From positions 1 through 44,242 of IMG/VR virus record IMGVR_UViG_3300045988_084446: 44,242 bases of DNA; one strand, 5' to 3'. This document shows positions 12,397 through 32,334 of this stretch, piece by piece. Below the pieces are notes generated by a model. It was not told where the DNA came from. It saw only the letters and a list, made by a program, of their open reading frames with translations, and did no database searches. A program made the translations under genes and the position numbers. Every line of letters begins with the position of its first letter. Within the stretch, counting starts at the first letter, position 1. Source of the stretch: a virus.

Positions 12397-15300
12397 ATGG
12401 ATCCGCAGAAAAGAGCAGAAATTGAGCAGATGATGCGCCGCGACGTGGCAAGCGGAAATATCGGCGTCAAGATTAAGATGCCCGGCGAGAACAACAATGA
12501 CGAACTGAACGATATCGTAAACTATGCGCCGACAAGTGAATACACGATTTATGACACGGGCAGACGCGACGACGCGGGCAATCCGATCATGAGCAGCGAC
12601 GTGATGGATTTGATGATGACAAAATCCTATGAGCCGCAGAAAGAATCGGATTGGTCTGTCTCTAATATCGCAGATGCGGTCTATACAAAGCTGCGGGACA
12701 ACTTCTATGATGGCAGTGTTCAGCCCGTCGATTTTGACAATCCATATTACACAAAAGACATGACTGCACCGCCGGAGCCGATTACAGGGAAAGACCTTAT
12801 CAAAGGGGCTATGCCCGAGAGTTTTCAGGCATCCAAACTCTATGCGGATTATTTCTACGGTGAGGACGAAAAACGCGAGCAGATCAAGAAAGCGCATGAC
12901 CTGACGGGGATTCGCGCGGAGACGATTGCCAATGACCCCGATGTATGGGAAAAGGTTATGAAGATTGTCCAGCGTGCAGAAAAACTCAAAAAACTTCCGG
13001 GCATGGTAGATGCGAACGGCGATCTCAATATGAGCCGCGTCTATGAGGCGATGCCGTATCTTCGGGAAATCGTCGAAAAGCGCGGCACGAACGAGGCTGT
13101 CATGATGCTCCAGAATGCCGAGGGACTGCAAACAGTCAATGATGCGTACAGCAATGAGTTTATGCGCTTTGCGGGAAGTGTTGCGACGGGCGTAGAACGT
13201 GGCTACTACAATATCCGTAAACAGTTGACCTATGCGAACGCAATGATCGGCAGACGTAAACTCACCGAAGATGAGCAGAATTGGATTACGGCGCTTGACA
13301 AGAAGAAGGAGGAATTGCCCGAATACTCCTATGGCGGTGTTGGGCAAGCAGTTGGTGCGATGATCGGCGGTGCCGCCGAGAATATCCCGATGATTGCCTC
13401 TGCGCAGGGGATTGGAGCGGTTGCAGGAGGTATCACTCTTGCCGTAACAAAGAACCCAGGTACGGCGGCAAATGTCGGAAGAGCTGCTGCTATTGCCGTT
13501 ATGGGGCTTGAGATCGGTGGCAGTCAGTATGAGGAGAATCTCAGCAAACTGGACGCAAAGGGACGCGCGATGTATACGCCGACAGAGGCGGCTGCGATTT
13601 CGGCGACACAGGGGCTTACCGAGGGTGTAATCGAGCAGCTTGCTTTGCAGAAGATTGCACGCACGATTTTTGGGCGGGGTGAGGCAAAGAGCCTGCGCGA
13701 CCTCTATGCAGGTGCAGGAGCAAAAGATTTGGCACTGGCCGCAGAAGGGGCAACTGCAAACGAAGCGGCGCGTGCACTCATCAAGGAACGGATTCTTGGT
13801 GCGGCAAAAGCGGGCGCAATTACGTTTAATACGGAGCTGCAGGAGGAGTTTGCCCAGCAGGTCTCGGATATGGTCATCGAGAACATGGCGCAGATGGCAC
13901 TCAAGGGGGACGATGCCGAGATTGCATCCGTCAGAGAAATCCTGCAGAAATCTACCACCGCCGCAATCGAAGCCGCGCCCTCTATCGCCGGATTCGGGCT
14001 TCTCGGCTTTGGCGGTCATGTGGGTGCCCATACGAATACGATGCTGCATGCTCGCTCTCACATGGAACAGCTCGTGAAGAATCGTCTCTATCGGAGCGTC
14101 AATGAGAATCAGCATCTCATGAATACTGTTGAGGCGGTAGGGAATAATCTGAAGAACGTACAGGAACTCCAAGGCAAAGCACCTGATCTTGTGAATGAGA
14201 TGCTTGATTCGCAGAACCGCCGCTATGGGATAGAGACAACGGCCGTAGATATTGTATCACTCAATCAGGAAGAGAGCGGCGCGGAGCTTGTGCAGGAGAT
14301 CGCCGCCGCAAATAATATCAGCGCGGAGGAACTGCAGGCGTGCGCGGACGGGACGGGGATGCTGCCCGTCAAAACCTCGACTCTCCAACAGATGACAACG
14401 CATCTGGATGAGGGCAAACGTAAGGCACTCTTTCAGAATATCACAAAGTCCTCTGATCTCTACACGGACAAGCAGGCACAACATGAGGCGAAGATCGTCA
14501 AGGAGATTCTAGGTGCATTCCGTGAGAAGACGGAAGAGGAGGTCGGCGATTCTGTTGACCGTTATGTTGAGAGCGCGTTTGCAGAACATGAGCATCGTGC
14601 GCTTGCTCGGGATATTTTGCTTGCAGACGTCAATCATCCTGCGGCAGAAATTAAGCGGCGTATGAACCGTCTGGATTCCGATCTCGCAGAACTGACAGCC
14701 GTACAGAGTGACGGTGGTGCGGAATCGGCGGAGTATCTTGCACATATCCAGCCCGAGATCGACAAGATCAATGCGCAGAAGGCGGCGCTTTCGACTGTTG
14801 AGGGCACAATAAAAGGCCTCCAACCCGGGGATGTTGTCGCAACGGCGGAACTGTCCCCTGAGGCAAGAGGCGTCTATCATGAGCTTGCGGGTCAGCTTGG
14901 TGATGCCAAGAGCAAGAAAGCCCGCACGGCTGCGCGTGCCTCTGCGCTTCTTACTGCGCGCTATGCTGAGCGTATGGCGAAAATTTACAGCGAGGTAAAG
15001 GGCGAGCCGTACACCGCCGCAGACTATATGCGCGAACATCTCCGTGTGGATGCGCGTGCGGATGACAAGAAAAGAGAGGCGGCGAAGAAAAAGGCAGAGG
15101 TCGTCAAGGATTTCATTGACACGCATTTCCCCGATGCCGCCGAACGCGAGATGGCAGTCATTGCAACGATGCAGGATGCCGTAAGCCCCGCGAAGGGATG
15201 GCGTAGGCTCTATAACGACTTTGTGGAAGATCGCGATGAACTTCTACGTCCTGCGCTGGATGCACTGGGGCGCGGGATGGGCAACGGTGTCGATATTGTT

Positions 15301-18300
15301 CCGATTGATGATGATGGACGCGGAATACGTGTGTCCAATAATGAACCCTGGTATCGATACTTTTACAAGGAGCACGGGCGACCGCCGCGCAAGGGGGAAC
15401 TCACCGACCTTGCCTATCGTCTCACCGTCGGTGATGCATCCGCACCGAAAATCGAAGGATGGGCGCCGGCATCGCAGGAAGATATAGACGCGATGGAGGC
15501 CGCAAAAGGTCAGCTTGACGAACTGAACGGCTACATCCATACCCTTGAAAATATCAAGGAACGCATGATGCAGATGGATACGGAAGCGTTGAATCAGGAT
15601 GAGGCGCAGACGGGAGTGTTCGGGGACAGGGAAAAAGCAATTGCTGTGCGTGAGATTCGTAATCTTGTTCCGCTGGAGGTTGTTCTAACGGGGAAACCTT
15701 TGGATAAGAAGGCGGCAGAAGCTGTTTTTTCGACCTTTGGCGAAGTAGAAAATCCGCGTTATGGAACGTATGCGACATTCCCGAAAAGTATGGTCGGCAA
15801 GATTATCAAGCATCGTGGTTTGGATGTATCTCAGATGCTTACTGATATTCCACGGCTGTTTTCTTCTTCTGTACTGGCCCTTGTTGAGCCGGAGTACAAA
15901 AAAGAAGGACATAAGGAACATCCTAATATACTTGCCTATCATCACTATGTCAATAAATTTACGGCGGATGGTACGACATACTATATACGTTTTTCGCTCA
16001 GAGAAGAGAAAACAAAGAACCGCGCAAAACCAAGCGCAAAACGCATTCTTCACTCGACGGGAATCAGTGATATTCAAATCTACGAGGAAAACAAAAAAGA
16101 CGTTTCCTCTCAACGTATCCGGGTTAGTGACCCGGGCGAAGAGAGCAAAACGTCTTTTGTTGATCATAGATTAGCAGAACTTTTCGATTCTGTCAAGGAT
16201 ATTCCTGCGGATGAGAATGCAGAAACCTTAGAGCAATCCGCATGGCACGGCACGCCGCATGATTTCCGCGAGTTCCTGCTTGAGATGATCGGCACGGGTG
16301 AGGGCGCACAGACACACGGTTGGGGACTGTATTTTGCGCAGAATCGGGAGGTGTCGGAGTGGTATAAAGATGTATTAGGGGAGGTTCAACAAGCGATTAT
16401 CCACGCCGGCGATAAAACGTATGCCGTGCACCCTGACGGTTATCGCGTAGAGAGGAATAGCGGCAAACCGCTGAAAGAAGGTTCTTCAATTGAAATCGCG
16501 CTTTCTGCGTTTGAGGACAGCAATGCCAATGTAAAGCAAGCAATCAGAGAGACTGAGGAATATCTTGAAAGAATGGAGCGTATAAAAGATACCGATGTGC
16601 GTGAAAAAAACAAGGACCTCATACGCGAAGCTCTGAAAATTTTGCAAGAAGAAGCAGATACATGGAATTTGGAAAAGAAAAAATCAAGTCTTTTTCATGT
16701 CGAAATCCCCGACAATGACGTTCTTCTCGACGAGCAGAAGCCGTTTGACGAGCAGCCGCAGTTCGTGCAGGAGAAGCTGAGAGAGGTGTTTGCCGATGAG
16801 GACAATAATAGAAAAGCTCGTTTTGCCAAAGAAATAAAAAGCTACGAGGCTAAAATCAAGGACTATGACCTTGTACTCAGTGAAAACGCAACGATTGAAG
16901 AGAGACAAGCGGCGGCAGAACGCCTTATACAAGGCGGGTCTGTGTATGGAGTCCCCTTAGAACGGGCTTTAGGCCCCGAGTTTAGACAAGATTTTCAGCT
17001 GGGGAGAGAGGATGTTGAGTACTATAAAGAGCAAACGCAAGAGGCTCTTGATAACTACCAAACGATCCTTAAGAGTTATAGGAATGGCAAGGCAATTTAT
17101 GAAAGTCTTTCATATTCGCTTGGCAGTCCCAAAGCAGCATCTCTCGCGTTGAACGAGGTCGGTATCAAGGGCATCACCTACGACGGACAGCGCGACGGTC
17201 GTTGCTTTGTCATCTTCGATGATCAGGCAATCCAAATCATCGAGAAGTATAACCAAGATCACGCGCACGGGGCGAAGGGGAATATCACGGCGACGCTTGG
17301 CGGTACGCAACGTCTGATTTCTCTCATGCAGGTGGCAGATCAGTCGACGTTTATGCACGAGATGGCGCATAACTTCCTGTTTGATTTGGAACATATCGCA
17401 GAAGTTGCACCAGAGAGCCGCTATGCCAAAGACCTTGCCGCAATCCAGAAATGGGCGACGTGGACGAAAGGTGCGGCGGACGAGTACGTGGGGACAGCTT
17501 CTGCGGCAGAGTTCCGCAACCGTGAGGAGAAAATTCTTGCAGCAGAGAAGAAGGGAGATGCAGCAGAGACAGAACGCCTCAAGCGTGAATGGATGCAGGA
17601 GCGTTTTGCCCGTGGGTTTGAGGAATACCTTCGCAGCGGGGAAGCACCTGCACAGGGATTACGTGCTGTGTTCCGTCGCTTCAAGGCATGGCTCACGCGG
17701 ATTTACAAGGATGTCACGGGTGCGGGTGTGCGCGCATCTGCTGAGGTCGAAGCAATCATGGCGCGTATGATTGCAACAGACGAGGAGATCGAAGCGGCGG
17801 CGGTCGTCAAACGTGCGCAGCGTCTCCAAAAGATTGATCCTGAACTTCTCAATGCGGATTCTGCCGAGACGATGATTCAGTGGGAGACAGAGGCCAAGGA
17901 GCGCGCAAAGGAAACGCTGCTCAAAGAGCTTATCCGTGAGATGCAAGGGCGCGACGTTGACGCACACATGGAGGAATACGAAGCACAGCTGAAAGCTGAG
18001 ATGCGGGAGAATCCCGTTTGGCAGGCGGAGGCGGTTGCGGAGACATTTGGCGTTGGTCAGGTCATCGCAAGCGGCTATTATCCTACGGTGGAGTCGTATG
18101 AAAAGGCACTCAAAGATGCCGGCGGCGGATTCGACGCAGCTTATAATCGTCAGATGCGCGAGGAGCGGGAACGCTACAAGACAGAAATGCCGAACGCAGA
18201 GGCGATTGCACAGCGAGCAGAAGAGGTGCTTGCATCACAGGAATACACCGCACGTCAGACAGCCCTTGAAGGAGAACTCCTGAACGAGTATATCAAGGCC

Positions 18301-21300
18301 TATGACAACGCCCCGCAGCGTCTCAAAGATGCGATGATCGGCGTTGCGCGTGCACTGGAACGTGAGGAGGATGCGCCGTTGGAAAAGGCGGTGACGGCTC
18401 TCAAATATGCGTTCCGCTGGCAGGAGAAACAGGCGCAGGAGATTGATGATTTGCGGGCGCTCCTCTCTTCCGCGAAAGAATCAGGAGAGGAAGATCGCAC
18501 AAAGATGCGTGAGAAGTTCGGGGAGGCGTTTAACCGACTCAAACTCTCGGCGGCGCAGAACCTCGAAGCCGTGCGCAGCCTCCGTGATTCGGCGGCGGGA
18601 AGAGTTGCTGCGATGCGTGCATATGCACAGCAGCACCTTGAGAACGCTCCAACCCACGAGGCGACGAATACGCGTCATTGGATGCGGCAGGTACAGAGCG
18701 CCGCAAAAGAGACAGAACGTCATCTCACGAATATGCTCCGCAAGAATAATGGAATTGAGAAGGAGGACACAGGCGACAAAGACCTTGCGGCGGCACGTAC
18801 GGCAAAGACCCGTCAGCTTGCAATGGAGGCAATGACGCATGAGAGCGTCAAACTGAAACGCGAGCTCGATCGTATGGTGAAATACTTTGCCCGCCGGGAG
18901 AAGAATCTTGCCAATGACAAGACGGGCAAGATTGACGGAAATCACCGCTATTTCATTCACCATTTACTCTATGTGTTTGGTCTTCGTCGCTCCGATGGTG
19001 TGCCTCTCATGGGAGAAGGTGCGCGTAGTTGGTCGGAATTGATGCAAGAGATCAAGGACTCCAACGATGGCTTTGATGGCGTGGATATTCCCGAATGGCT
19101 CACTTCTGCGGCAACGTCCCGCGATACGCAGCGAAAGTATACGGAACTCTCCATGCAGGAACTCCGTGATCTGCGTATGCTCGTTGAATATCTCTATGTG
19201 ACGGGGCGCAACAAGAACACGCTCCTCACATCAGGTGAGAACATCGATGAGGTCGCGGCTCGTATGTATCAGAACTATGAGGAGCATATCGGTGAGCAGG
19301 ACGGCGGAAAAGAAGCTCACACCTATATGGTGCAGCTTTTGAAGCCGGAAACAATGCTCAAGGTCATCGGTGGCAAGAGCGGTGCGATTGTAGACTATCT
19401 CTACAATACGCTCTTTGATGCACAGGAAAAAAAGACGGAGGCACTTGAGGAGAACGCAAAACGATTGGAAGTGATCATTGGACAATACTACACGCAGAAA
19501 GACAGGCGCAAAGCGTGGAGCAAGAAACTCGGGATAAATCTCACGGATGGCACAGAACTGACAAAGGAGAATGTGCTCTCTATGGCTCTCAACTGGGGCA
19601 ACGAGGGCAACCGTTCCCGCCTCGTCGCAGGTCTCTCGACGAAAACACCGTATATAGAGAAGGATGTCGAGGAGATTTTTGCAAAGACGATGACCAAGAA
19701 AGACTGGGCATTCGTGCAGGAGATATGGGATTATCTCAATGAGCACGGCGATGCGGTCAATGAGGTCGTCGAAAAGAGCGCCGGCACGCCGATGAAGCGT
19801 GTTGCACCGGATGAATTTACGATCGAGGCATCGACAGGAGAGTTGCTGACCATTCGCGGCGGGTACTATCCGATTCGGTATGACCCGAAACGTTCTGAGC
19901 GTGCAGCAGATCAGGAGCTTGCAACTGTCGCCGAATCGGTTGGTGGCGCTATGGCGTTTGGGTCTGGAATGGGCTCAACGAAGAACCGTGCAAACGGGGC
20001 TCCGCTGGGGCGGCCGCTTGACCTCTCTTTGGATGTCATGTATCGCCATATCGATCAGCAAATCCATATTGCCGCGATGCGCCTTGCTTGCCGTGATGTC
20101 TATAAGCTACTCAACCATTCGGCGGTTAAAGAACCGATCTTGCAGACGCTCGGAAAAGACGCATATGACAGTCTGAAACGATGGGTTGAAAATACATGGC
20201 AAGAGCCAATGAATAACAATCTCTACATTGAGACTAAAGCGGAGGAGTGGCGCGCGAACACGGTAACGGCAATCATGGCGTTTCGTGTGTCGACGGCACT
20301 CCTTAATGCGTCCAATATTATGCCGATGGCAGATCGACTCGGTACAGTCAATGCAGTTCAGGCAATGTTGCAGTACCTCCGGCACCCGCAGAGGATCCGT
20401 CAATTCGTACTCAATGATTCGGCGTTTATGCGGAACCGTGCTCATAATATGGATCGCGATCTGAATACCAAAGGAAAAGACATTTTCGGCGGAAAGAACT
20501 CCGTTCGGAAGTGTCTTATTAAGTATGGGACATGGCTCATGGAGGAGACAGACATGCTCTGCAGTGTGCCAACCTATTATTGGACATATCAGGGGCGGTA
20601 CAACAAGGAGGTAGCGGACGGGACAGATGAGATTATTGCCCGTGAGCGTGCGCACAGAGAAGCCCACGAGGCAGTACGTTCGATCTTTGGCTCTGCAGAT
20701 TCGATTGACCGATCTGCGGTACAGCGTTCACAGAGTGGGCTTGTCAAGGCATTTACGCCATTCTTCAGCTTCTTCAATGCACAGATGAATGCAGTGTGGG
20801 AGAAGTATTATGCAGGGCGTTATGACAAGCACAAGAGCAACTTTGTTGAGCGTTATTCCGGGTTTGTTCGTTCCTATCTTTTCCGTTTTGTCGCAATGGC
20901 TGCAATCGAAACGATGATTCGGCAAAGCCTTGAAGCTGTTTCGGCCGGAAGTGGTGATAAAAAAGATAAAGACGAATGGTATAAGAAATTTTTGAAGCAG
21001 TGGGCGGCAAATTCTCTCGGGAGCGTCGCAAGCGGATTCCCGGTGATCAATATGGTTGGCGAGATCGCACAAGGGATGATTACAGGCAAACTGCAGCAGG
21101 GGCGCAATAGTGGTGTTGTATTCGCTGCTGTTGGGCGACTTACCGACCCCATCCAGATGGCGCATTCTTTGCAAAGCGACAAGTCCAAGATTGATGCGAT
21201 TGATTTTGGACGCGCCCTGACAAAGGGAATCGCCGGGACGATCTATGCTGTTCCGGATACCTTGACCGATGGCTTCTGGAATACGGCACGCTTCATGACC

Positions 21301-21384
21301 GACAATTACCGTCTCAATAATCCAGATGATCTGCGTGAATTTATCGCAAAGACAATTCTGGATAAGAAACTCAAACAGAAATAG
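12397..21384 (+). CDS. Giant 2995-aa ejection/core 'polyvalent' protein (T7 gp16 position) with an H-Y-E-type ADP-ribosyltransferase motif and a zincin-like HExxH motif
   Basis: Uninterrupted 8988-nt ORF with RBS GGGAGG. A Gly/Ala-rich hydrophobic stretch (GGVGQAVGAMIGGAAENIPMIASAQGIGAVAGGITLAV) looks membrane-inserting. SAWHGTPHDF...GWGLYFA matches ART motifs 1 and 2 (PARP LWHGS / GIYFA; diphtheria toxin YHGT). FMHEMAHNF is a zincin HExxH. Confidence 0.6.
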   Translation: MDPQKRAEIEQMMRRDVASGNIGVKIKMPGENNNDELNDIVNYAPTSEYTIYDTGRRDDAGNPIMSSDVMDLMMTKSYEPQKESDWSVSNIADAVYTKLRDNFYDGSVQPVDFDNPYYTKDMTAPPEPITGKDLIKGAMPESFQASKLYADYFYGEDEKREQIKKAHDLTGIRAETIANDPDVWEKVMKIVQRAEKLKKLPGMVDANGDLNMSRVYEAMPYLREIVEKRGTNEAVMMLQNAEGLQTVNDAYSNEFMRFAGSVATGVERGYYNIRKQLTYANAMIGRRKLTEDEQNWITALDKKKEELPEYSYGGVGQAVGAMIGGAAENIPMIASAQGIGAVAGGITLAVTKNPGTAANVGRAAAIAVMGLEIGGSQYEENLSKLDAKGRAMYTPTEAAAISATQGLTEGVIEQLALQKIARTIFGRGEAKSLRDLYAGAGAKDLALAAEGATANEAARALIKERILGAAKAGAITFNTELQEEFAQQVSDMVIENMAQMALKGDDAEIASVREILQKSTTAAIEAAPSIAGFGLLGFGGHVGAHTNTMLHARSHMEQLVKNRLYRSVNENQHLMNTVEAVGNNLKNVQELQGKAPDLVNEMLDSQNRRYGIETTAVDIVSLNQEESGAELVQEIAAANNISAEELQACADGTGMLPVKTSTLQQMTTHLDEGKRKALFQNITKSSDLYTDKQAQHEAKIVKEILGAFREKTEEEVGDSVDRYVESAFAEHEHRALARDILLADVNHPAAEIKRRMNRLDSDLAELTAVQSDGGAESAEYLAHIQPEIDKINAQKAALSTVEGTIKGLQPGDVVATAELSPEARGVYHELAGQLGDAKSKKARTAARASALLTARYAERMAKIYSEVKGEPYTAADYMREHLRVDARADDKKREAAKKKAEVVKDFIDTHFPDAAEREMAVIATMQDAVSPAKGWRRLYNDFVEDRDELLRPALDALGRGMGNGVDIVPIDDDGRGIRVSNNEPWYRYFYKEHGRPPRKGELTDLAYRLTVGDASAPKIEGWAPASQEDIDAMEAAKGQLDELNGYIHTLENIKERMMQMDTEALNQDEAQTGVFGDREKAIAVREIRNLVPLEVVLTGKPLDKKAAEAVFSTFGEVENPRYGTYATFPKSMVGKIIKHRGLDVSQMLTDIPRLFSSSVLALVEPEYKKEGHKEHPNILAYHHYVNKFTADGTTYYIRFSLREEKTKNRAKPSAKRILHSTGISDIQIYEENKKDVSSQRIRVSDPGEESKTSFVDHRLAELFDSVKDIPADENAETLEQSAWHGTPHDFREFLLEMIGTGEGAQTHGWGLYFAQNREVSEWYKDVLGEVQQAIIHAGDKTYAVHPDGYRVERNSGKPLKEGSSIEIALSAFEDSNANVKQAIRETEEYLERMERIKDTDVREKNKDLIREALKILQEEADTWNLEKKKSSLFHVEIPDNDVLLDEQKPFDEQPQFVQEKLREVFADEDNNRKARFAKEIKSYEAKIKDYDLVLSENATIEERQAAAERLIQGGSVYGVPLERALGPEFRQDFQLGREDVEYYKEQTQEALDNYQTILKSYRNGKAIYESLSYSLGSPKAASLALNEVGIKGITYDGQRDGRCFVIFDDQAIQIIEKYNQDHAHGAKGNITATLGGTQRLISLMQVADQSTFMHEMAHNFLFDLEHIAEVAPESRYAKDLAAIQKWATWTKGAADEYVGTASAAEFRNREEKILAAEKKGDAAETERLKREWMQERFARGFEEYLRSGEAPAQGLRAVFRRFKAWLTRIYKDVTGAGVRASAEVEAIMARMIATDEEIEAAAVVKRAQRLQKIDPELLNADSAETMIQWETEAKERAKETLLKELIREMQGRDVDAHMEEYEAQLKAEMRENPVWQAEAVAETFGVGQVIASGYYPTVESYEKALKDAGGGFDAAYNRQMREERERYKTEMPNAEAIAQRAEEVLASQEYTARQTALEGELLNEYIKAYDNAPQRLKDAMIGVARALEREEDAPLEKAVTALKYAFRWQEKQAQEIDDLRALLSSAKESGEEDRTKMREKFGEAFNRLKLSAAQNLEAVRSLRDSAAGRVAAMRAYAQQHLENAPTHEATNTRHWMRQVQSAAKETERHLTNMLRKNNGIEKEDTGDKDLAAARTAKTRQLAMEAMTHESVKLKRELDRMVKYFARREKNLANDKTGKIDGNHRYFIHHLLYVFGLRRSDGVPLMGEGARSWSELMQEIKDSNDGFDGVDIPEWLTSAATSRDTQRKYTELSMQELRDLRMLVEYLYVTGRNKNTLLTSGENIDEVAARMYQNYEEHIGEQDGGKEAHTYMVQLLKPETMLKVIGGKSGAIVDYLYNTLFDAQEKKTEALEENAKRLEVIIGQYYTQKDRRKAWSKKLGINLTDGTELTKENVLSMALNWGNEGNRSRLVAGLSTKTPYIEKDVEEIFAKTMTKKDWAFVQEIWDYLNEHGDAVNEVVEKSAGTPMKRVAPDEFTIEASTGELLTIRGGYYPIRYDPKRSERAADQELATVAESVGGAMAFGSGMGSTKNRANGAPLGRPLDLSLDVMYRHIDQQIHIAAMRLACRDVYKLLNHSAVKEPILQTLGKDAYDSLKRWVENTWQEPMNNNLYIETKAEEWRANTVTAIMAFRVSTALLNASNIMPMADRLGTVNAVQAMLQYLRHPQRIRQFVLNDSAFMRNRAHNMDRDLNTKGKDIFGGKNSVRKCLIKYGTWLMEETDMLCSVPTYYWTYQGRYNKEVADGTDEIIARERAHREAHEAVRSIFGSADSIDRSAVQRSQSGLVKAFTPFFSFFNAQMNAVWEKYYAGRYDKHKSNFVERYSGFVRSYLFRFVAMAAIETMIRQSLEAVSAGSGDKKDKDEWYKKFLKQWAANSLGSVASGFPVINMVGEIAQGMITGKLQQGRNSGVVFAAVGRLTDPIQMAHSLQSDKSKIDAIDFGRALTKGIAGTIYAVPDTLTDGFWNTARFMTDNYRLNNPDDLREFIAKTILDKKLKQK

Positions 21385-26961: not shown

Positions 26962-28065
26962 TTAAGCCTCAATCGGTACTGCTATCAGTTTATTTCTGAA
27001 TATGATAACTCGATCAAGGAGCCTCTCCCAAAATAATTTTCTTTCTGCTTTCTCCATATCGGCATAGCCGGTGTCTGCGGTATCAATGCTCGCCAATAAT
27101 GCCGCCTCTATGCGATCCTCTCGCCAATACACGTTGTATGGGCAGTTACTGTGCGTGTATGATCGACACACATAATAAATGCGCACACATGTCTTTTGAC
27201 GATGGTATCTCGGCGTGAGTCCACGCCCGCATTTAGGGCATTTTAATAGACGACTGAAAAGATAGATGTTATCTGTTCGCGGGTGTTGAGTACGTCCCTC
27301 GAATGCTTTTTGTACGGTTGCGAACAAGTCATCATCGATCAAGGCTGGACAGAAATTTTTGACGCCGTAATATTCGCCGATATAAATTTTGTTTTGTAGA
27401 GCGCGACCAACGGCTCCTTCTGTTTTGCCGTAGTGATATTTTCCCAACAGCATCCGATACGTTGCAAGCACAGAATGACCTTCCGCAAAATACGCAAACA
27501 TATCTTGTACCATTGGCGCCTTTTTCCTGTCGATTACAATATGCTTGTTCTTGCTGATTTTGTATCCATCAGGTATGTGGCCAGTGATAACCTTTCCTGA
27601 ACGTAAAAGTCCCTGCTGCACATATTTGACGCGGTCACTTGTCTGATCGCTCTCGTGCTGTGCAAGTGTCAGTTTGAGGTTGAGCATCAACCTTCCGCTG
27701 CTAGTTGTTGTATTGTACAGAGATTCCTGTGAGCACTCCCAGTCTACGCTATGCGCATCAAGGATATCCTGCACAATATAATAGTCCCGAACGTTTCGGA
27801 ACCATCGATCAAGGCACTTAAATATGATGACATCAACGTCTCCTGTTTGTACATCCTCTAAGAGCCGTTGCAGACCTTTGCGAAGGTGAGGGGATTTGCG
27901 GGCGCTGACACCCTCATCGGCGTAAACCCCCACTATTTTGTAAGCGTGTTGTTTGGCGTATTGGTATAAATCATGCTCCTGCTCGGCGAGGGAGTATCCA
28001 TGCCGAGCCTGCTCCTCTGTTGACACGCGAATATAAAGCGCCGCGCGCTTCTTCGATCGGTTCAT
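26962..28065 (-). CDS. Serine recombinase (resolvase/invertase catalytic domain plus recombinase and zinc-ribbon domains; small serine-integrase type)
   Basis: N-terminus MNRSKKRAALYIRVSTEEQ carries the catalytic Ser motif. C-terminal Cys cluster CPKCGRG...C...C. RBS AAGGAG. Confidence 0.8.
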   Translation of the reverse strand: MNRSKKRAALYIRVSTEEQARHGYSLAEQEHDLYQYAKQHAYKIVGVYADEGVSARKSPHLRKGLQRLLEDVQTGDVDVIIFKCLDRWFRNVRDYYIVQDILDAHSVDWECSQESLYNTTTSSGRLMLNLKLTLAQHESDQTSDRVKYVQQGLLRSGKVITGHIPDGYKISKNKHIVIDRKKAPMVQDMFAYFAEGHSVLATYRMLLGKYHYGKTEGAVGRALQNKIYIGEYYGVKNFCPALIDDDLFATVQKAFEGRTQHPRTDNIYLFSRLLKCPKCGRGLTPRYHRQKTCVRIYYVCRSYTHSNCPYNVYWREDRIEAALLASIDTADTGYADMEKAERKLFWERLLDRVIIFRNKLIAVPIEA

Positions 28066-28078
28066 CTAAAGATTCTCC

Positions 28079-28344
28079 TTGTCTACAAATTGCCTACAAA
28101 ATACCATGATTCGCCTTTCTTACTCTTATTTTTTGTTTCGTACAAGAATATGTTTTATTCTTGTGAATCCCTGTCATTGTAAGGGATGTAGTAATGTGAT
28201 ATAATCTTTTATCCTGTGCTATTATATATCGGTGATCTTATATCACAAAATACACAGCACTGCCACATAGCTTTTTATATCAATGGTTTAGCGCCTATTC
28301 AGAGTGACTTGTCTACATCTTGTCTACATAATCACTTGCCTACA
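28079..28344. repeat. Candidate attP region: five direct TTGYCTACA arm-type repeats bracketing an AT-rich segment with inverted repeats
   Basis: TTGTCTACA at 28079, TTGCCTACA at 28090, TTGTCTACA at 28309 and 28320, TTGCCTACA at 28336, all in the same orientation with about 11-bp phasing. 10-bp IR TGTGATATAA / TTATATCACA at 28196 and 28239. Abuts the 3' end of the integrase gene. Confidence 0.45.
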
Positions 28345-29498
28345 ATCCTTTCAAAAATCTGCGCGGTCTCTTGCTTCATTTCCTCCGTATCATGCGTATA
28401 CAGATTGAGTGTAATCGTTGCATCAGCATGTCCCAGACGTGCTGCAACGTCAACAGGCTTTGCCCCTGCCTCAATGAGGCGGGTGGCGTGCGTATGCCGG
28501 AAGCTGTGTGCATTCAGATTCAGACGCTGCAGAAACGCCTCAAAACGTGCATGACTGTAAGGAGTGCCGTTGGACCGAATACAAAGGAGAGGGCGTCGAA
28601 CAAGAAATTTCGGAGGTGGTATTTTCTTCGGCAGAATAACGAGTGCGCGACCATCATGCATATCCTCGTAGATTACTTGATATGCCTCTCCTAAGCGCAT
28701 CTCCTCTTTTGCTTGTGATGCTTTTAGTGCACGCAGATAGGAGATAAGCACGGCATCCGCGTAGAATGTTCGCGTACTGGTCGTGGTCTTCGGCGTTTCG
28801 AAGTACCCGCGATATACCCGCTGTCTTGCAACCGATATTTCTCCTGTGTTAAGGTCAATATCATCCCATGTGAGCCCCAAAACCTCACTGATTCTAAGCC
28901 CCGTGTGATAGAGCAGTTTGACTGCGGGATAGTATACCCCGTCTGTTGGGATGGCTGCAAATTGCTCGGGCGTGATGACCACGCGGGGGATGATCTTTTG
29001 AGGAGCACAACGGGGGATAGATATGCCTGTGACAGGGTTCGCAGAGATCAATTCTGCCGGATATACGGCATATTTCATAGCAATAGATAACACCGTTTTT
29101 GCCTGTGCTATTGTGGTTCGCGCAAGACCTTCTTTTGCAATTTTTTTCATCCATGAATCTACATCTCGCGGGCGTAGTTCCTGAACATGGATACTGCCGA
29201 GATACGGGACGATGCGTGCAGCGATTATGCTTGAATAATTCTTATGCGTTGATCGCTTCAAAGTTGGCCGCACGACGTTCTCAAGCCACGAGGCAAGGTA
29301 GTCCCGCAGCGTCACTTTCTCCGACGTGACACCGATATTCCCGCTCTTCCAGTCGGCATAGGCTTTTACGCCTTCGTCAAATGCTTCATCCTCGGTGGCA
29401 AAGCCTCCTTTCTCTTTCATGCGGCGTGGGTTCTTCGAGATGTCGAAGCTGTACGAAAAAGTTTTCCCACGCTTTCTGATTCTGATTTTGTTGGACAT
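28332..29498 (-). CDS. int: Tyrosine site-specific integrase
   Basis: 388 aa. N-terminal SAM-like/arm-binding region and a C-terminal catalytic domain with R...HTHATR...LGH...Y (…YTHDTEEMK). RBS AAGGAGG. Confidence 0.85.
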   Translation of the reverse strand: MSNKIRIRKRGKTFSYSFDISKNPRRMKEKGGFATEDEAFDEGVKAYADWKSGNIGVTSEKVTLRDYLASWLENVVRPTLKRSTHKNYSSIIAARIVPYLGSIHVQELRPRDVDSWMKKIAKEGLARTTIAQAKTVLSIAMKYAVYPAELISANPVTGISIPRCAPQKIIPRVVITPEQFAAIPTDGVYYPAVKLLYHTGLRISEVLGLTWDDIDLNTGEISVARQRVYRGYFETPKTTTSTRTFYADAVLISYLRALKASQAKEEMRLGEAYQVIYEDMHDGRALVILPKKIPPPKFLVRRPLLCIRSNGTPYSHARFEAFLQRLNLNAHSFRHTHATRLIEAGAKPVDVAARLGHADATITLNLYTHDTEEMKQETAQIFERIVGK

Positions 29499-29520
29499 AA
29501 ATAAAACCTCCTTGAAATGG

Positions 29521-29575
29521 GAGGCGAATCATGGTAGAATTTTATTGCAACTTGGCATGATTCGCGTCATGTCTG
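29521..29575. repeat. Motif site B: GAGGCGAATCATGGTAGA plus an inverted partner (GCGAATCATG - 22 nt - CATGATTCGC), upstream of int
   Basis: Exact 18-bp match to site C (32866-32883). 15-bp match in inverted orientation to site A (28102-28115). Confidence 0.5.
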
Positions 29576-29709
29576 CCGCTCTCTCTGTTGGCGCAGAGGG
29601 GGCGGTTTTTATTCTCGTTATTTTTCTTTTTACAAAAATATGCGCTTTTACTTGTGATTTTTATAGAAAAGTGTCAAATTACTTTCAACACTATGTTTGA
29701 AAGTGGATG

Positions 29710-29740
29710 AATGCAATGTGAGGATTCTTCACATTGCATT
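29710..29740. promoter_or_regulatory. Perfect 12-bp inverted repeat AATGCAATGTGA - 7 nt - TCACATTGCATT, downstream of the minus-strand cargo operon. Terminator or operator
   Basis: Seen directly in the sequence. Lies 20 nt past the stop of the Cys-peptide gene. Confidence 0.4.
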
Positions 29741-29759: not shown

Positions 29760-30035
29760 CTAACATCCGCAAGTGGGGCTAAAGGTTCCGTCGCAGCATT
29801 TTGTCCGTCCGTTTTCGCATCCACAGACACCTTTATGGTGACTGCAACAGCCTCTCCTTAAGTATATCATACGGTGATTGTATGTGCCGACAATGGAGCC
29901 GATCTCCGGCGGGGGAACCTCAACATTGAGTGTAAAATTTGCAATAGATCCTTCTTCTGCCTGTGGCGTTGCTGCAGATACCGTGGGGGATAGCAACATC
30001 GCAAGTATTGCTGTGAGTAAAGTGATGCGTTTCAT
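29760..30035 (-). CDS. Secreted cysteine-rich peptide precursor (signal peptide plus 8-Cys C-terminal module)
   Basis: MKRITLLTAILAMLLSPTVSA|ATP... ends GCCSHHKGVCGCENGRTKCCDGTFSPTCGC. Translationally coupled to the upstream rhodanese gene by an ATGA overlap. Confidence 0.55.
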   Translation of the reverse strand: MKRITLLTAILAMLLSPTVSAATPQAEEGSIANFTLNVEVPPPEIGSIVGTYNHRMIYLRRGCCSHHKGVCGCENGRTKCCDGTFSPTCGC

Positions 30036-30472
30036 TGATCTTTCTCTCCCTTCATATCTACCATCGGCAGCCGGCCTTTTTCAATATGCTTTGCAGCGTC
30101 TTTTAATACCTTGACGTTTATAAAGCCGTTTTGAAATAGAATCTGTGCTGCACGAATAGAATAACCATCATCGGGGCATGAACAATAAATCATGTAAGCC
30201 TTTGACTTATCTTGCTGGGCAATAAAATCATCAAGGGGTTTCTTTTTGTAGGGGTTAATCCATATTTCCCCGGGAACCTCTTTTTTGCTCCTCTCCCTAC
30301 TTTGTTCTGATCGGACATCGATTACCTGTACGGCTTCTGGAGCTTTTAAGTATTCCTTTATCGTTATGAACGAATACTCGACTTGCTCCTTTTGTTGTGA
30401 CTGCTCTGCTGATATAACGCTGGCGTTCAGCAAAACGAGCAACAACATGATGGGGATGCGTAATAGTTTCAT
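30032..30472 (-). CDS. Secreted rhodanese-domain (sulfurtransferase-like) protein
   Basis: Signal peptide MKLLRIPIMLLLVLLNASVISA. VIDVRSEQ...GEIWINP...IYCSCPDDGYSIRAAQILFQNGF.NVKVL matches the rhodanese fold with a Cys in the active-site loop. RBS GGGAGG. Confidence 0.6.
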   Translation of the reverse strand: MKLLRIPIMLLLVLLNASVISAEQSQQKEQVEYSFITIKEYLKAPEAVQVIDVRSEQSRERSKKEVPGEIWINPYKKKPLDDFIAQQDKSKAYMIYCSCPDDGYSIRAAQILFQNGFINVKVLKDAAKHIEKGRLPMVDMKGEKDQ

Positions 30473-30510
30473 TTTCTTCCTCCCTTAAATAATGATGTAG
30501 AAGTCTGACA

Positions 30511-30912
30511 TCATTTTTGTACCTCATTCAGTTCATCGCTGTTGTTCCACCCGGGACCTCTCTGTTTCAGCCCTATATCACCTGCTTTTATATCCTGCCT
30601 CATTTGATTTATAATTGCTTCCCGTTGTTCCTCTGGAGACAGGGACGGATCTGCCATTGGTTCTGGACGAGAATGTGTTCCAACTTGATTGTCAGCTTTA
30701 GGTTTTGGCGATTCTTTTGTAGTATAGAACCCAACAAAAGATAGTATGCAAATCAGGGAAATAATGCAGATTCGTTTGAGGTAAGGTCGATTTTGTATAA
30801 ATCTTATCAACTGTAACAGATATGGTTTGACGGCTCGAAAAACCGATTTAAGTACAAGGAATATGACCGCAAGTAAAGAGCAGATTGCTATGATAAGAAA
30901 TACCTCGTTCAT
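30511..30912 (-). CDS. Small membrane protein (two TM) with a charged C-terminal domain
   Basis: TM1 VFLIIAICSLLAVIFLVL and TM2 ICIISLICILSFVGFY. RBS GGAGGG. Confidence 0.5.
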   Translation of the reverse strand: MNEVFLIIAICSLLAVIFLVLKSVFRAVKPYLLQLIRFIQNRPYLKRICIISLICILSFVGFYTTKESPKPKADNQVGTHSRPEPMADPSLSPEEQREAIINQMRQDIKAGDIGLKQRGPGWNNSDELNEVQK

Positions 30913-30945
30913 GATGTTGCCCTCCGTTTAGTCTTCCTGTGTATC

Positions 30946-31056
30946 TCAATAGAAGTCAGCGTTCTTTGTTGGTATGGTGAAGTTACTATCTTTTCTCCGC
31001 ACTTTAAGCAACAAAGCATCATTAGGGAGTTCATAACCGCATTTTCGACAAAACAT
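30946..31056 (-). CDS. Hypothetical 36-aa protein with a CxxC zinc-ribbon-like N-terminus
   Basis: AGGAGG 6 nt upstream of the ATG. Translation MFCRKCGYELPNDALLLKVRRKDSNFTIPTKNADFY. Below the length cutoff of the ORF track. Confidence 0.3.
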   Translation of the reverse strand: MFCRKCGYELPNDALLLKVRRKDSNFTIPTKNADFY

Positions 31057-31065
31057 AATAACCTC

Positions 31066-31521
31066 CTATTCATAGACACAAGCTGCGCATTCTAACTCCT
31101 TTAGCAGAGAGGCGGTATCGGCAAGAGATAATAATTTTTCATCGCGGATGCTGTCGATCATCCGGACGTTGTTGCGCAAACAGGTATGCGCGAGAAGGAG
31201 AAAGGCGAACTTGTTCGCCGCAAGCTCCTTTTCGTCATGCTGCGCTGCAGATAATCGATCTACGTGAACAAATGAATCTAAACTATGATGGAGAATGATA
31301 TGCCCTAACTCGTGAGCAAGGGCAACATTACGTGCATCCTCTGAGAGAGTTGTCTTAATGGAGACACTTTGCATCCGCCCAAGGCGAACGAAGAACGCAT
31401 CTGGCAAGAAGATAATGTTGTGTGGGTGTATTTTGATGCCCATCGCTCGGAGAATTGTGGATGGGCTGTTGCTCTCGTGAGCTCGAATAACATCAATGAC
31501 GGTCGGAAGTAGTCTCCGCAT
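31066..31521 (-). CDS. immA: ImmA/IrrE-family metallopeptidase (anti-repressor protease)
   Basis: HEXXH in LAHELGHIILHH. Overlaps the 3' end of the upstream XRE repressor gene, as in immR-immA pairs. Confidence 0.75.
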   Translation of the reverse strand: MRRLLPTVIDVIRAHESNSPSTILRAMGIKIHPHNIIFLPDAFFVRLGRMQSVSIKTTLSEDARNVALAHELGHIILHHSLDSFVHVDRLSAAQHDEKELAANKFAFLLLAHTCLRNNVRMIDSIRDEKLLSLADTASLLKELECAACVYE

Positions 31522-31954
31522 CAGATGATTCCTCCTTGATTAACACCTTTACAAACTCCCGCAAGACCTGTTTTTGCTGTTCCGTTAGTGGTTTGTCGCT
31601 ATAAGTAAGATACCCACCACGTTCCAACAAGGCGTCAAGATCATTTTCTTTTTTTGTGCGTCGTGTATGTTTCCCGTAGGGGGCGATTTCTTCGGAAACC
31701 GTTCCTTGTATATAATTCTGGTCCCCCGTTGTCAATGAAGATGGATTTTCCCATCCCATAATATAGGCAGGGGTAACGTGATACACTTCGGCAAGCAGTT
31801 CTATCTTATCCACGGGGATGTTTGTTACAATATCATTTTCATATTTATATAGTGTTTGCTTTGAAACAAGCACGCGTTGACCGACTTCATCTTGAGTCAA
31901 CCCTCGATCTAAACGAAGGGCTTTAAGCCGCGCACCAATAGAACCATCTGGCAT
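31493..31954 (-). CDS. immR: XRE-family HTH repressor (ImmR/CI-like)
   Basis: HTH in LRLDRGLTQDEVGQRVLVSKQTLYKYEN. Divergent from the cro-like gene. Start ATG 31954, 7 nt after GGAGGGGG; a TTG at 31960 is an alternative. Confidence 0.75.
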   Translation of the reverse strand: MPDGSIGARLKALRLDRGLTQDEVGQRVLVSKQTLYKYENDIVTNIPVDKIELLAEVYHVTPAYIMGWENPSSLTTGDQNYIQGTVSEEIAPYGKHTRRTKKENDLDALLERGGYLTYSDKPLTEQQKQVLREFVKVLIKEESSDAETTSDRH

Positions 31955-31992
31955 ATACAATCCCCCTCCTTCTTAAATGATGTGTCATTTAT

Positions 31993-32027: not shown

Positions 32028-32072
32028 GTTACTTTTGAAGAATAAAATATCTTGACAGGTTACTTTCTTAGA
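32028..32072. promoter_or_regulatory. Operator-like repeats GTTACTTT(C)TTAGA overlapping PR. A third copy lies at 32325-32338, after cro
   Basis: GTTACTTTTGAAG at 32028, GTTACTTTCTTAGA at 32059-32072, GTTACTTTCTAAGA at 32325-32338. Confidence 0.4.
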
Positions 32073-32080
32073 GTTATACT
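32052..32080 (+). promoter_or_regulatory. Early rightward promoter PR (TTGACA - 17 nt - TATACT)
   Basis: Near-consensus boxes at 32052-32057 and 32075-32080, about 45 nt upstream of the cro-like start. Confidence 0.6.
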
Positions 32081-32124
32081 AATGGTATCCTAAAAAGCTA
32101 CCAAAGAGAAAGGGGGATGTGAGA

Positions 32125-32334
32125 ATGATAAAAACAGATGAGATTGTCGGTTTGATGGCGAAGCATCAAATCTCACGAAAAGAAATGGCGAAGAGGCTGG
32201 GGATAACACCTAAAACCTTTTCGCTGAAGCTAAAAAAAGGGCATTTTGGTTCTGACGAAATTGAAACCATGATTGAGGAACTTAAAATTGAAGATCCTAT
32301 GTCCATTTTTTTTGCCAAGAAAGTAGCTTTATAA
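32125..32334 (+). CDS. Cro-like HTH regulator
   Basis: 69 aa. HTH in ISRKEMAKRLGITPKTFSLKLKKG. Divergent from immR. GGGGG 8 nt upstream of the ATG. Confidence 0.6.
   Translation: MIKTDEIVGLMAKHQISRKEMAKRLGITPKTFSLKLKKGHFGSDEIETMIEELKIEDPMSIFFAKKVAL

Follow-up and report, generated by a model that had tools for sequence, protein, structure and literature searches.

We show that the 44,242-nucleotide stretch of DNA analysed here, IMG/VR virus record IMGVR_UViG_3300045988_084446 over its full length (positions 1 to 44,242; the window), is the genome of a temperate phage whose immunity region is of the ImmR/ImmA type, and that two adjacent genes downstream of its repressor, encoding a rhodanese and an eight-cysteine peptide that are both predicted to be exported, are the only conserved unit among the cargo carried there. 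On the minus strand, the genes follow one another in the order immR, immA, a 36-amino-acid open reading frame (ORF), a gene for a protein with two transmembrane (TM) helices, the rhodanese gene and the gene for the 91-amino-acid peptide. A ribosome-binding site (RBS) of the GGAGG type precedes every gene, the intergenic gaps measure 9, 33 and 38 nt, and the rhodanese and peptide genes share an ATGA overlap, an arrangement of translational coupling. A 12-bp perfect inverted repeat (29740..29729 / 29721..29710, minus strand) begins 20 nt past the peptide stop codon. The order, spacing, RBSs, overlap, sequence motifs and repeat all lie where the initial annotation, made from the sequence alone, had placed them. 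That annotation had taken the four small ORFs as one cargo system, and here our comparisons disagree: of the four, only two genes form the conserved unit. It had also failed to recognise the combination as a described system, and this judgement held, as neither protein has a PHROG or PADLOC match and the peptide has no Pfam or NCBIfam match either. By these comparisons, rhodanese and peptide are a real, tightly coupled pair without a described function. What is new is this pair, which we regard as genuine; the rhodanese fold is already known, and the cysteine-rich domain is very widespread yet uncurated.

The peptide gene (30035..29760, minus strand) encodes an exported precursor consisting of a signal peptide, a variable pro-region with two GSI(V/A)(G/N) motifs, and a 30-residue C-terminal domain that contains eight cysteines and ends RGCCSHHKGVCGCENGRTKCCDGTFSPTCGC. 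The product is small and slightly cationic, and its signal peptide, like that of the rhodanese, is predicted from sequence features and from conservation in our family alignments (A1 and A2). Both genes are real, as judged from their many homologues and clear constraint: we found 48 close homologues of the peptide, and 19 of its last 31 residues are identical in 28 diverse sequences, while the signal peptide and linker are free to vary. The C-terminal consensus is R-G-C-C-S-(H/W)-H-x-G-V-C-G-C-x-x-G-R-x-x-C-C-D-G-x-x-S-P-(T/S)-C-x-C. At E <= 0.001 the family comprises at least 1,414 clusters at 50% identity, and it is present in at least 444 species genomes and in 46 IMG/VR contigs, with a taxonomic span that includes Negativicutes, Myxococcota, Bdellovibrionota, Campylobacterota and Melainabacteria. 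Almost every member has 80 to 110 residues and the domain at its C terminus, and a few have tandem copies. Of the small exported domains without a curated family that we found, this is one of the most conserved. Of 80 genome loci sampled, only 7 have a recombinase within the ~10-kb locus (5 kb either side), and most of the family is therefore not carried by phages. The link to prophages proposed in the initial annotation thus holds for the pair, which recurs in several prophage types, but not for the peptide family as a whole, and the pair has a chromosomal location as well.

Searches for known relatives of the peptide returned little. A six-cysteine relative matches the NCBIfam model NF007463 (PRK10040, an enterobacterial 'hypothetical protein') at 5.5e-11 and 42.1 bits, below its cut-off of 93, and comparison with DUF3761 revealed common C.DGT.S and CS.HGGV elements in marginal hits (E = 0.58 to 7). 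The label 'PilY2' attached to an identical protein in nr was rejected, as it was not recovered when 28 family members were scanned with Pfam. A full-text literature search for the peptide motif strings returned only irrelevant papers, and tblastn searches of plasmids with the peptide and the six-cysteine relative gave no match. A few variants (P0125, P0175, P0060, P0144, P0155 and P0046) have two or three tandem copies of the domain or fusions to Excalibur, DUF5334 or, in P0046, Ada-type zinc-binding domains.

The rhodanese gene (30472..30032, minus strand) encodes an exported single-domain protein of 146 residues with the motif MIYCSCPDDG. The fold assigned to it in the initial annotation was confirmed by hidden Markov model searches (PF00581, residues 42 to 125, scoring 26 bits where the cut-off is 22.2) and by an AF2 model with a predicted local distance difference test (pLDDT) score of 87 overall and above 93 in the core, whose top PDB matches are all rhodanese domains (probability 1.00); the same kinds of search placed the peptide in an uncurated family and matched it to Dis2, as described below. 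In alignment A2, C97-S98-C99, D102 and IRAAQ are invariant down to 28% identity, and all sequences have a signal-like N terminus; the homologues conform to (Y/F)-C-S-C-x-x-D-x-x-(S/A)-I-R-A-A-Q. Cys97 aligns with the catalytic cysteine of NoxA-3 and BH2092. The active-site loop, C-S-C-P-D-D-G-Y-S, is two residues longer in alignments, acidic and devoid of basic residues, and the six-residue basic loop suited to thiosulfate (C-R/x-x-G-x-R/T) is absent from the window rhodanese. A phosphatase-like (Cdc25/ArsC) reading of the long loop was considered and rejected, the loop being acidic and without arginine.

The evidence that these two genes belong together comes from their linkage in both directions. 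A close homologue of the rhodanese is present in 19 of 143 peptide loci, and in all 19 it lies immediately upstream of the peptide gene. Conversely, when metagenomes were scanned with the rhodanese alignment, the next gene encoded the peptide at every one of the 21 loci with at least 41% identity and room downstream. The rhodaneses of loci L144 and L145 (45% and 40% identical) are followed by six-cysteine peptide variants. In total, 42 loci have contig room downstream of a rhodanese at least 40% identical to that of the window, and all of them have such a peptide there. The junction between the two genes is always tight: they overlap by as much as 4 bp or stand no more than 14 nt apart. The surroundings differ widely. 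The pair is found in serine-integrase prophages (L002-L005, L018, L099), in tyrosine-integrase prophages (the window, L098, L100, L016), with repressors that differ among prophages, in a small mobile element with Rep, Fic and recombinase genes (L145), and at a chromosomal site between flavodoxin/DUF4236 and ion channel/queA/ruvAB genes (L006-L009). Because the linkage holds across such differing contexts, the pair persists with all its surroundings exchanged.

Two genes can of course remain neighbours by descent, as a hitch-hiking cassette in which each acts alone. The linked loci do represent one rhodanese clade and one peptide sub-lineage, and most peptides elsewhere have other gene partners or none, but linkage and tight coupling survive a fall to 40% rhodanese identity, a change from eight to six cysteines, at least six contexts and the replacement of all flanks. 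A feature of the peptide itself also tracks the presence of the rhodanese, and in view of both we hold an absence of functional coupling to be very improbable. The feature is a pro-region motif, (G/N/D)-S-I-(V/A/L)-(G/A/N), present in one or two copies in every rhodanese-linked peptide, including those of L144 and L145. Among unlinked peptides, a motif of this GSIxG type occurs in 3 of 114, and only that of L022 (Sporomusaceae) looks genuine. Judging by this distribution, the motif may be a recognition element.

Structural comparison offered an indication of what the peptide domain might be. The AF2 model of the C-terminal domain has three strands (pLDDT 79 to 88), and its top Foldseek match in the PDB is chain AN of 7MUC/7MUD (Dis2, Lpg0823), with 44% identity over 32 residues, a root-mean-square deviation of 1.2 A and a probability of 0.82. 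In this model-based PDB comparison a Dis2 lobe is the peptide's only structural relative. The A1 family profile, run against PDB sequences, aligned with both Dis2 repeats via GCC..GG(V/I)...C.(D/N)G..S..C, although weakly (E = 0.26), and the two lobes carry the motif skeleton of the peptide (GCCSKMGGINYCD...CNNGFYSTCYC and GCCLWHGGV...CNDGYVSEEC). Dis2 belongs to the outer-membrane core complex of Dot/Icm, a type IV secretion system (T4SS) of Legionella pneumophila, where it lies near the outer membrane; its two lobes are alike in sequence and structure and contain five disulfides, and neither a structural relative nor a function was known for it (PMC8486379). Dot/Icm secretion activity does not require it (PMC12716638). 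Dis2 is exported with all ten cysteines in disulfides, and the phage peptide is predicted to be exported likewise; the two differ in that Dis2 has two lobes with six and four cysteines, whereas the peptide has one lobe with eight cysteines behind a long pro-region. Dis2 lobe 1 also lacks the histidine that is invariant in the peptide family. No T4SS genes were seen in the window or among the recurrent and called neighbours of pair-bearing loci.

The cysteines of the peptide family also bear marks of pairing. In 273 distinct domains, Cys3 and Cys5 are both present in 266, both absent in 7 and never found singly; since they are gained or lost only together, we consider them a probable disulfide pair. 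Because of this covariation, and because the Dis2 cysteines are all disulfide-bonded, we read the domain as a putative four-disulfide knot rather than a metal site. The same residues could in principle serve metal or chalcogen handling, in which the peptide would bind metal or selenium and the rhodanese would act as a metallochaperone or reductase, giving tolerance to metals, selenite or chromate. Eight cysteines and an invariant histidine within 30 residues would suit such a role, but a joint loss of Cys3 and Cys5 is the signature of a disulfide pair, and the Dis2 lobes put every cysteine in disulfides, lobe 1 without a histidine. The rhodanese has partial matches to the chromate-resistance protein ChrE and to a (seleno)protein family, but the ChrE match, at 30.8 bits, is far under the 120-bit cut-off. 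Similarly, chromate transporter genes lie 2 to 3 kb upstream of the pair in L144 and P0046 is fused to its Ada-type zinc domain, but no conserved metal transporter or regulator stands beside the pair. The metal-handling role suggested in the initial annotation is weakened by the disulfides of Dis2 and the covariation, and we regard it as very unlikely.

The relatives of the rhodanese suggest what its two cysteines may do. Its nearest curated family is NF041203, the rhodanese-related (seleno)protein LYCAU, which it matches with 57 bits, the cut-off being 115; the alignment is near full-length (residues 17 to 136 versus model positions 7 to 122), the family's Y-C-x-(U/C) motif appears here as I-Y-C-S-C, and NF041203 has selenocysteine (or cysteine) at the position of Cys99. 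A sister clade from soil metagenomes (L146, L169-L226), which is the true Cys form of the LYCAU family and has the motif YCACP(N/H/S)DEASIRAAQ, reaches 102.6 bits to NF041203 and never has the peptide as a neighbour. In 45 of its 59 loci, the genes form a cluster of a di-haem oxidoreductase, a 256-amino-acid protein, the rhodanese, ccmA and ccmB. CxxCH thiols are managed in the periplasm by the cytochrome c maturation pathway. Because the sister clade adjoins ccmA-ccmB, the wider rhodanese family may perform thiol redox work, and the gene neighbourhood suggests a role for the sister clade itself in cytochrome c maturation or periplasmic thiol redox. Disulfide formation assisted by a periplasmic rhodanese has a precedent in Escherichia coli, where, according to Chng 2012 as cited in PMC5403849, PspE together with DsbC can replace DsbA/DsbB.

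PspE and the Wolinella protein Sud resemble the window rhodanese in size and fold, and each is likewise an exported single rhodanese domain. They differ from it in having a single cysteine and a short basic loop for thiosulfate or polysulfide, whereas the window protein has two cysteines, a longer acidic loop and a dedicated co-translated partner peptide. These differences bear on the possibility that the pair performs sulfane-sulfur chemistry, with a persulfide on the rhodanese cysteine passing to the peptide, which would be a persulfide, trisulfide or polysulfide carrier, a buffer or a sulfur-modified product. The canonical reaction of rhodanese-fold proteins is sulfur transfer, and Sud, a periplasmic polysulfide-sulfur transferase (1qxn), is among both the sequence and the fold matches, but the acidic P-D-D loop has none of the basic residues to which thiosulfate or polysulfide anions bind, and the second invariant cysteine, a selenocysteine in relatives, indicates a redox pair. 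An eight-cysteine peptide would supply many acceptor thiols; against this, the homologous Dis2 cysteines are plain disulfides. The pair is found in sulfide-rich oral anaerobes and both proteins are extracytoplasmic, where sulfur transfer requires no ATP, but most members of the peptide family have no rhodanese at all. Taken together, these points make sulfane-sulfur chemistry unlikely as the function of the pair.

Where and when the pair acts can be approached from the host and from the operon. Among the matches listed, the genomic relative nearest to the peptide (81% identity) and to the rhodanese lies in a prophage of Selenomonas noxia ATCC 43541 (L018), and further relatives come from human oral metagenomes; the phage host is an oral Selenomonas-like bacterium. 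Selenomonas is a diderm member of Negativicutes, and Sec-exported products therefore arrive in the periplasm and not necessarily in the medium. The order of repressor, cargo and integrase is kept in at least four prophage types, and the pair, which the initial annotation had placed in the repressor operon, belongs to the lysogenic transcription unit, from repressor to integrase, of several prophages that differ from one another. That annotation had also noted no terminator between the repressor and the cargo. A pattern scan, whose terminator and promoter site counts are not above those of shuffled controls, found no canonical intrinsic terminator between immA and the cargo, through to the peptide gene, although one weak site (31219..31204) and a promoter-like site lie within immA itself. 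The 12-bp repeat past the peptide gene can form a hairpin of -18.4 kcal/mol (z = -5.5) that lacks a U tract and was not called as a terminator; the copy in L098 has one mismatch. Based on the shared strand with immR-immA, the tight spacing, the lack of a canonical terminator and the conserved repressor-cargo-integrase order, we infer that the pair would be expressed in the lysogen as part of the lysogenic transcript.

Our preferred reading, to which we assign a probability of roughly 0.45, is that the rhodanese is a dedicated periplasmic partner that matures the disulfide-rich mini-protein by thiol oxidation or sulfur transfer, expressed from the lysogenic operon. According to this proposal, Sec would export both products into the periplasm of a diderm Selenomonas-type host, where the C97-x-C99 pair would cycle between dithiol and disulfide or through a cysteine persulfide. 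The C-x-C rhodanese would then install or shuffle the four disulfides of the 30-residue domain, recognising its substrate by the GSIxG repeats of the pro-region and by the basic RGCCSHHKG segment. The product would be a compact, disulfide-knotted mini-protein with the fold of one Dis2 lobe, probably acting in the cell envelope. In genomic terms, the pair is a moron cassette occupying the variable slot that separates immR-immA from the integrase, and it would be served by the lysogenic promoter and possibly by an internal promoter as well. A dependence of the peptide on the redox or sulfur chemistry of the rhodanese had been among the suggestions of the initial annotation; it is the best-supported idea that we have, with the reaction itself deduced rather than observed.

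Several observations weigh against this proposal. No terminal oxidant suited to an anaerobe is evident. All linked loci fall in one rhodanese clade, so the counts given above are not independent events and shared ancestry inflates them; by the same token, the GSIxG motif may be a lineage signal. About 124 of the 143 peptide loci have no rhodanese, including those of other Negativicutes (L019, L020, L022), and the fold is therefore not generally rhodanese-dependent. The acidic C-x-C-P-D-D loop might just as well bind a metal. As for the transcript, the pattern scan called no lysogenic promoter for immR, while, given the promoter-like site within immA (31157..31128, minus strand), the cargo may be transcribed independently of the immR promoter. 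Three minus-strand hairpins after the peptide gene (29740..29710, 29606..29575 and 29525..29506) may also mark transcript boundaries; the last overlies the int RBS and has a T run behind it.

The small size, slight positive charge, export and disulfide richness of this prophage product also invite comparison with weapons of lysogenic conversion, in which a defensin-like or hepcidin-like bacteriocin or toxin would be secreted and the rhodanese would be its maturation enzyme or immunity factor. An analogy is the SPbeta sublancin operon (sunA-sunT-bdbA-sunS-bdbB), which likewise couples a prophage-encoded exported cysteine peptide to its own thiol-disulfide oxidoreductase, sublancin being dependent on phage-encoded BdbB (PMC6391423). 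The oxidoreductases there are the thioredoxin-like BdbA and the membrane DsbB-like BdbB, not a rhodanese, and sublancin requires an ATP-binding cassette (ABC) exporter/protease, a glycosyltransferase and an immunity gene, all of them absent from the window locus, so the comparison is an analogy only. More generally, no conserved immunity gene, dedicated exporter or processing protease stands beside the pair in any context, and a Sec signal in a diderm host delivers to the periplasm only. The core is almost unchanged from phylum to phylum, unlike bacteriocins, which diversify; the pair also occupies a stable chromosomal locus; and Dis2, the sole structurally characterised relative, is a subunit of an envelope complex. 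One family member (P0049) has a weak Conotoxin-family match (E = 0.0054), which is below threshold and was treated as compositional. We therefore consider a weapon decidedly unlikely. The toxin, bacteriocin or signalling peptide of the initial annotation found nothing specific in its favour, with no immunity gene, exporter or receptor found; the toxin and bacteriocin readings, like that of metal handling, are possible but have no specific support. Nor does the locus resemble those of ribosomally synthesised and post-translationally modified peptides (RiPPs), as both proteins have Sec-type signals and their gene neighbourhood contains no RiPP enzyme, protease or ABC exporter. The conserved core and variable leader of the peptide are the reverse of those of typical RiPPs, and it is the leader-like GSIxG motif that tracks with the rhodanese.

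Other genes found beside the peptide gene place its pairing with the rhodanese in a wider setting. Counting neighbours on the same strand within ~110 bp, an Endonuclease I gene adjoins the peptide gene at 8 loci, including Helicobacter prophages, a phospholipase D (PLD)-type nuclease (Nuc) gene at 4, and a staphylococcal-nuclease homologue at 2, with one more overlapping on the opposite strand. The nuclease-adjacent loci are L001, L012, L032, L045, L055, L068, L080, L082, L091, L094, L105, L116, L117 and L124, and the Helicobacter prophage BK070047 exemplifies the arrangement. A chance association of three unrelated nuclease folds with one mini-protein is unlikely, and because these folds adjoin peptide genes, the gene neighbourhoods suggest that the eight-cysteine domain may be a general partner of exported enzymes. 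The commonest non-rhodanese neighbour is a 132-amino-acid secreted protein, 'c3' (13 loci, with 3 more on the opposite strand), which has no confident annotation and a weak similarity to a segment of GmhA (E = 0.0047). It was considered as a nuclease, which was not shown. The c3 loci, for example those of Gastranaerophilales, are L031, L060, L061, L063, L072, L073, L083, L086, L092, L093, L095, L106, L108-L110 and L126. A small Tyr/Gly/Gln-rich secreted protein is encoded next to the peptide at 8 loci.

It is tempting to extend the proposed maturation of the peptide by the rhodanese to a broader hypothesis, which we consider speculative and on the unlikely side. The window rhodanese might be the first rhodanese-fold enzyme dedicated to the extracytoplasmic maturation of a ribosomal mini-protein, working by sulfane-sulfur-driven anaerobic disulfide formation or by the making of persulfide or trisulfide bridges. 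The motif GCCS(H/W)HxGV...CCDGxxSPxCxC might then define a large, unrecognised class of envelope cystine knots, with partners ranging from a rhodanese to secreted nucleases of three folds and a T4SS core complex, and phages might use the module to remodel the envelope of the lysogen. Whatever its role, the rhodanese-peptide pair is a two-gene, ATP-independent periplasmic system open to reconstitution, and it bears on how multiple disulfides form in obligate anaerobes, on the role of rhodanese-related proteins with selenocysteine or cysteine, and on the purpose of Dis2-like lobes. The pair also recurs as a moron cassette among oral Selenomonas phages, within their lysogenic operon, in a slot that elsewhere holds Abi_2 and restriction-like genes.

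The two remaining cargo genes of the window have a different history from that of the pair. The 36-amino-acid CxxC ORF (31056..30946, minus strand) reported in the initial annotation is present, but it represents just the 5' half of a zinc-ribbon gene, broken by a frameshift, that spans 31056..30909. The second CxxC (CLKCGEKIV) comes from a second-frame ORF of 56 amino acids (31079..30909, minus strand), whose stop codon, TGA, forms an ATGA overlap with the start codon of the TM gene. The repaired zinc ribbon, MFCRKCGYELPNDALFCLKCGEKIV..., scores 33.7 bits to PF13240 against a cut-off of 25, compared with 17.6 bits for the 36-amino-acid ORF alone. The frameshift is located in the T-rich run GCTTTGTTGCTT and could reflect a pseudogene, an assembly error or programmed slippage.

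The gene that follows (30912..30511, minus strand) encodes a 133-amino-acid membrane protein with two hydrophobic helices and a hydrophilic tail, which has no Pfam, PHROG or PADLOC match. A recurring trio of membrane protein, rhodanese and cysteine peptide, as the initial annotation had envisaged, was not found: the TM protein has no homologue in the other 143 peptide loci and occurs elsewhere without the pair. A database-wide search located its family (L234-L240; P0247-P0252) directly after immR-immA in other oral prophages that have neither rhodanese nor peptide; there, Abi_2 and other genes precede the integrase, and the two-TM gene is the third gene, next to Abi_2. Long forms of the protein (180 to 187 amino acids) duplicate a C-terminal repeat, GPGWNNSDE(L/F)NEVQK, and a reading of these longer homologues as zinc-ribbon fusions was rejected, as the added length is this repeat. 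By its distribution, we take the two-TM protein to be an independent moron outside the pair; it and the broken zinc-ribbon gene are unrelated cargo sharing one slot.

The content of this slot varies among related phages (L098, L099, L101, L018, L016, L238). Between repressor and rhodanese, L098 has two small TM proteins, L099 and L018 a secreted protein of 169 to 177 amino acids, L101 two secreted proteins, and L016 an HSDR_N protein; within the pair-bearing prophages, the rhodanese-peptide pair is the sole constant. The insert is thus of the moron kind, variable, positioned between repressor and integrase, and deviating in composition. A slot that holds Abi_2, HSDR_N and membrane proteins in related phages fits a function that benefits the lysogen, but proves nothing. 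The low guanine-plus-cytosine (GC) content ascribed to the cargo in the initial annotation was confirmed, with values of 0.41 to 0.46 at 29 to 32 kb versus 0.51 to 0.58 where the structural and replication genes lie; low GC nevertheless extends over the entire 25 to 33 kb, hence the dip is not particular to the cargo.

The immunity region itself is of a familiar type. The ImmR-like repressor gene (31960..31493, minus strand; true start probably the ATG at 31954) encodes a helix-turn-helix (HTH) protein that matches Pfam HTH_3 (6.9e-13) and the phrog_8 and phrog_3 repressors. It is overlapped by the gene for an ImmA-like M78 metalloprotease, an anti-repressor (31521..31066, minus strand; Peptidase_M78 1.6e-9, phrog_87 metallo-protease), and is divergent from a cro-like HTH gene (32119..32334; HTH_26 and HTH_8 matches), ahead of which the pattern scan placed a plus-strand promoter-like site (32052..32080) with 11 of 12 positions matched. 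The window therefore has the HTH_3 repressor, the overlapping M78 gene and the divergent cro-like gene of an ImmR/ImmA-type module. The PADLOC models CapH and CapP, which describe defence-system regulators, and RmrA also match the immR/immA pair, consistent with a common HTH/M78 architecture. As in the ImmR-ImmA modules of ICEBs1-type elements and phages, the repressor and its overlapping M78 gene are divergent from lytic or transfer genes and the integrase lies downstream on the same strand (PMC6540685, PMC10098952), but in the window four additional cargo ORFs separate immA from int. An Rfam scan of 29.3 to 32.2 kb gave nothing credible, a DNA search of the region against phage records gave no match, and a tRNA scan found none in the window, hence no tRNA-type attP there.

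Downstream of the cargo, on the same strand and after a spacer of 260 nt, lies a tyrosine integrase gene (29498..28332, minus strand; Phage_integrase 4.1e-22 and Phage_int_SAM_3), followed in tandem by that of a 367-amino-acid serine recombinase (28065..26962, minus strand). In related prophages, the serine recombinases are 449 to 533 amino acids long and directly follow the peptide gene. The serine recombinase of the window may have been truncated, or displaced when the tyrosine integrase was acquired. The junction between cargo and integrase (29506..29606, both strands), which is kept in L098 and L100, comprises a terminator, a promoter-like site, an inverted repeat and a hairpin. The terminator is strong (29575..29606, plus strand; -26.7 kcal/mol with a U run), and the plus-strand promoter-like site (29512..29540) has 10 of 12 matches and an extended -10. 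Together they could, as predicted from these patterns, give rise to an RNA of ~65 nt antisense to the junction. The inverted repeat has 10-bp arms, GCGAATCATG and CATGATTCGC, at 29565..29556 and 29533..29524, with 22 bp between them.

The rest of the window has the organisation of a phage genome, with terminase, portal and capsid genes at its start and RecT and SMC-like early genes beyond the cro-like gene. The structural region includes an ORF of 2,995 amino acids (12397..21384, plus strand), presumably a giant tail or tape-measure/fibre protein.

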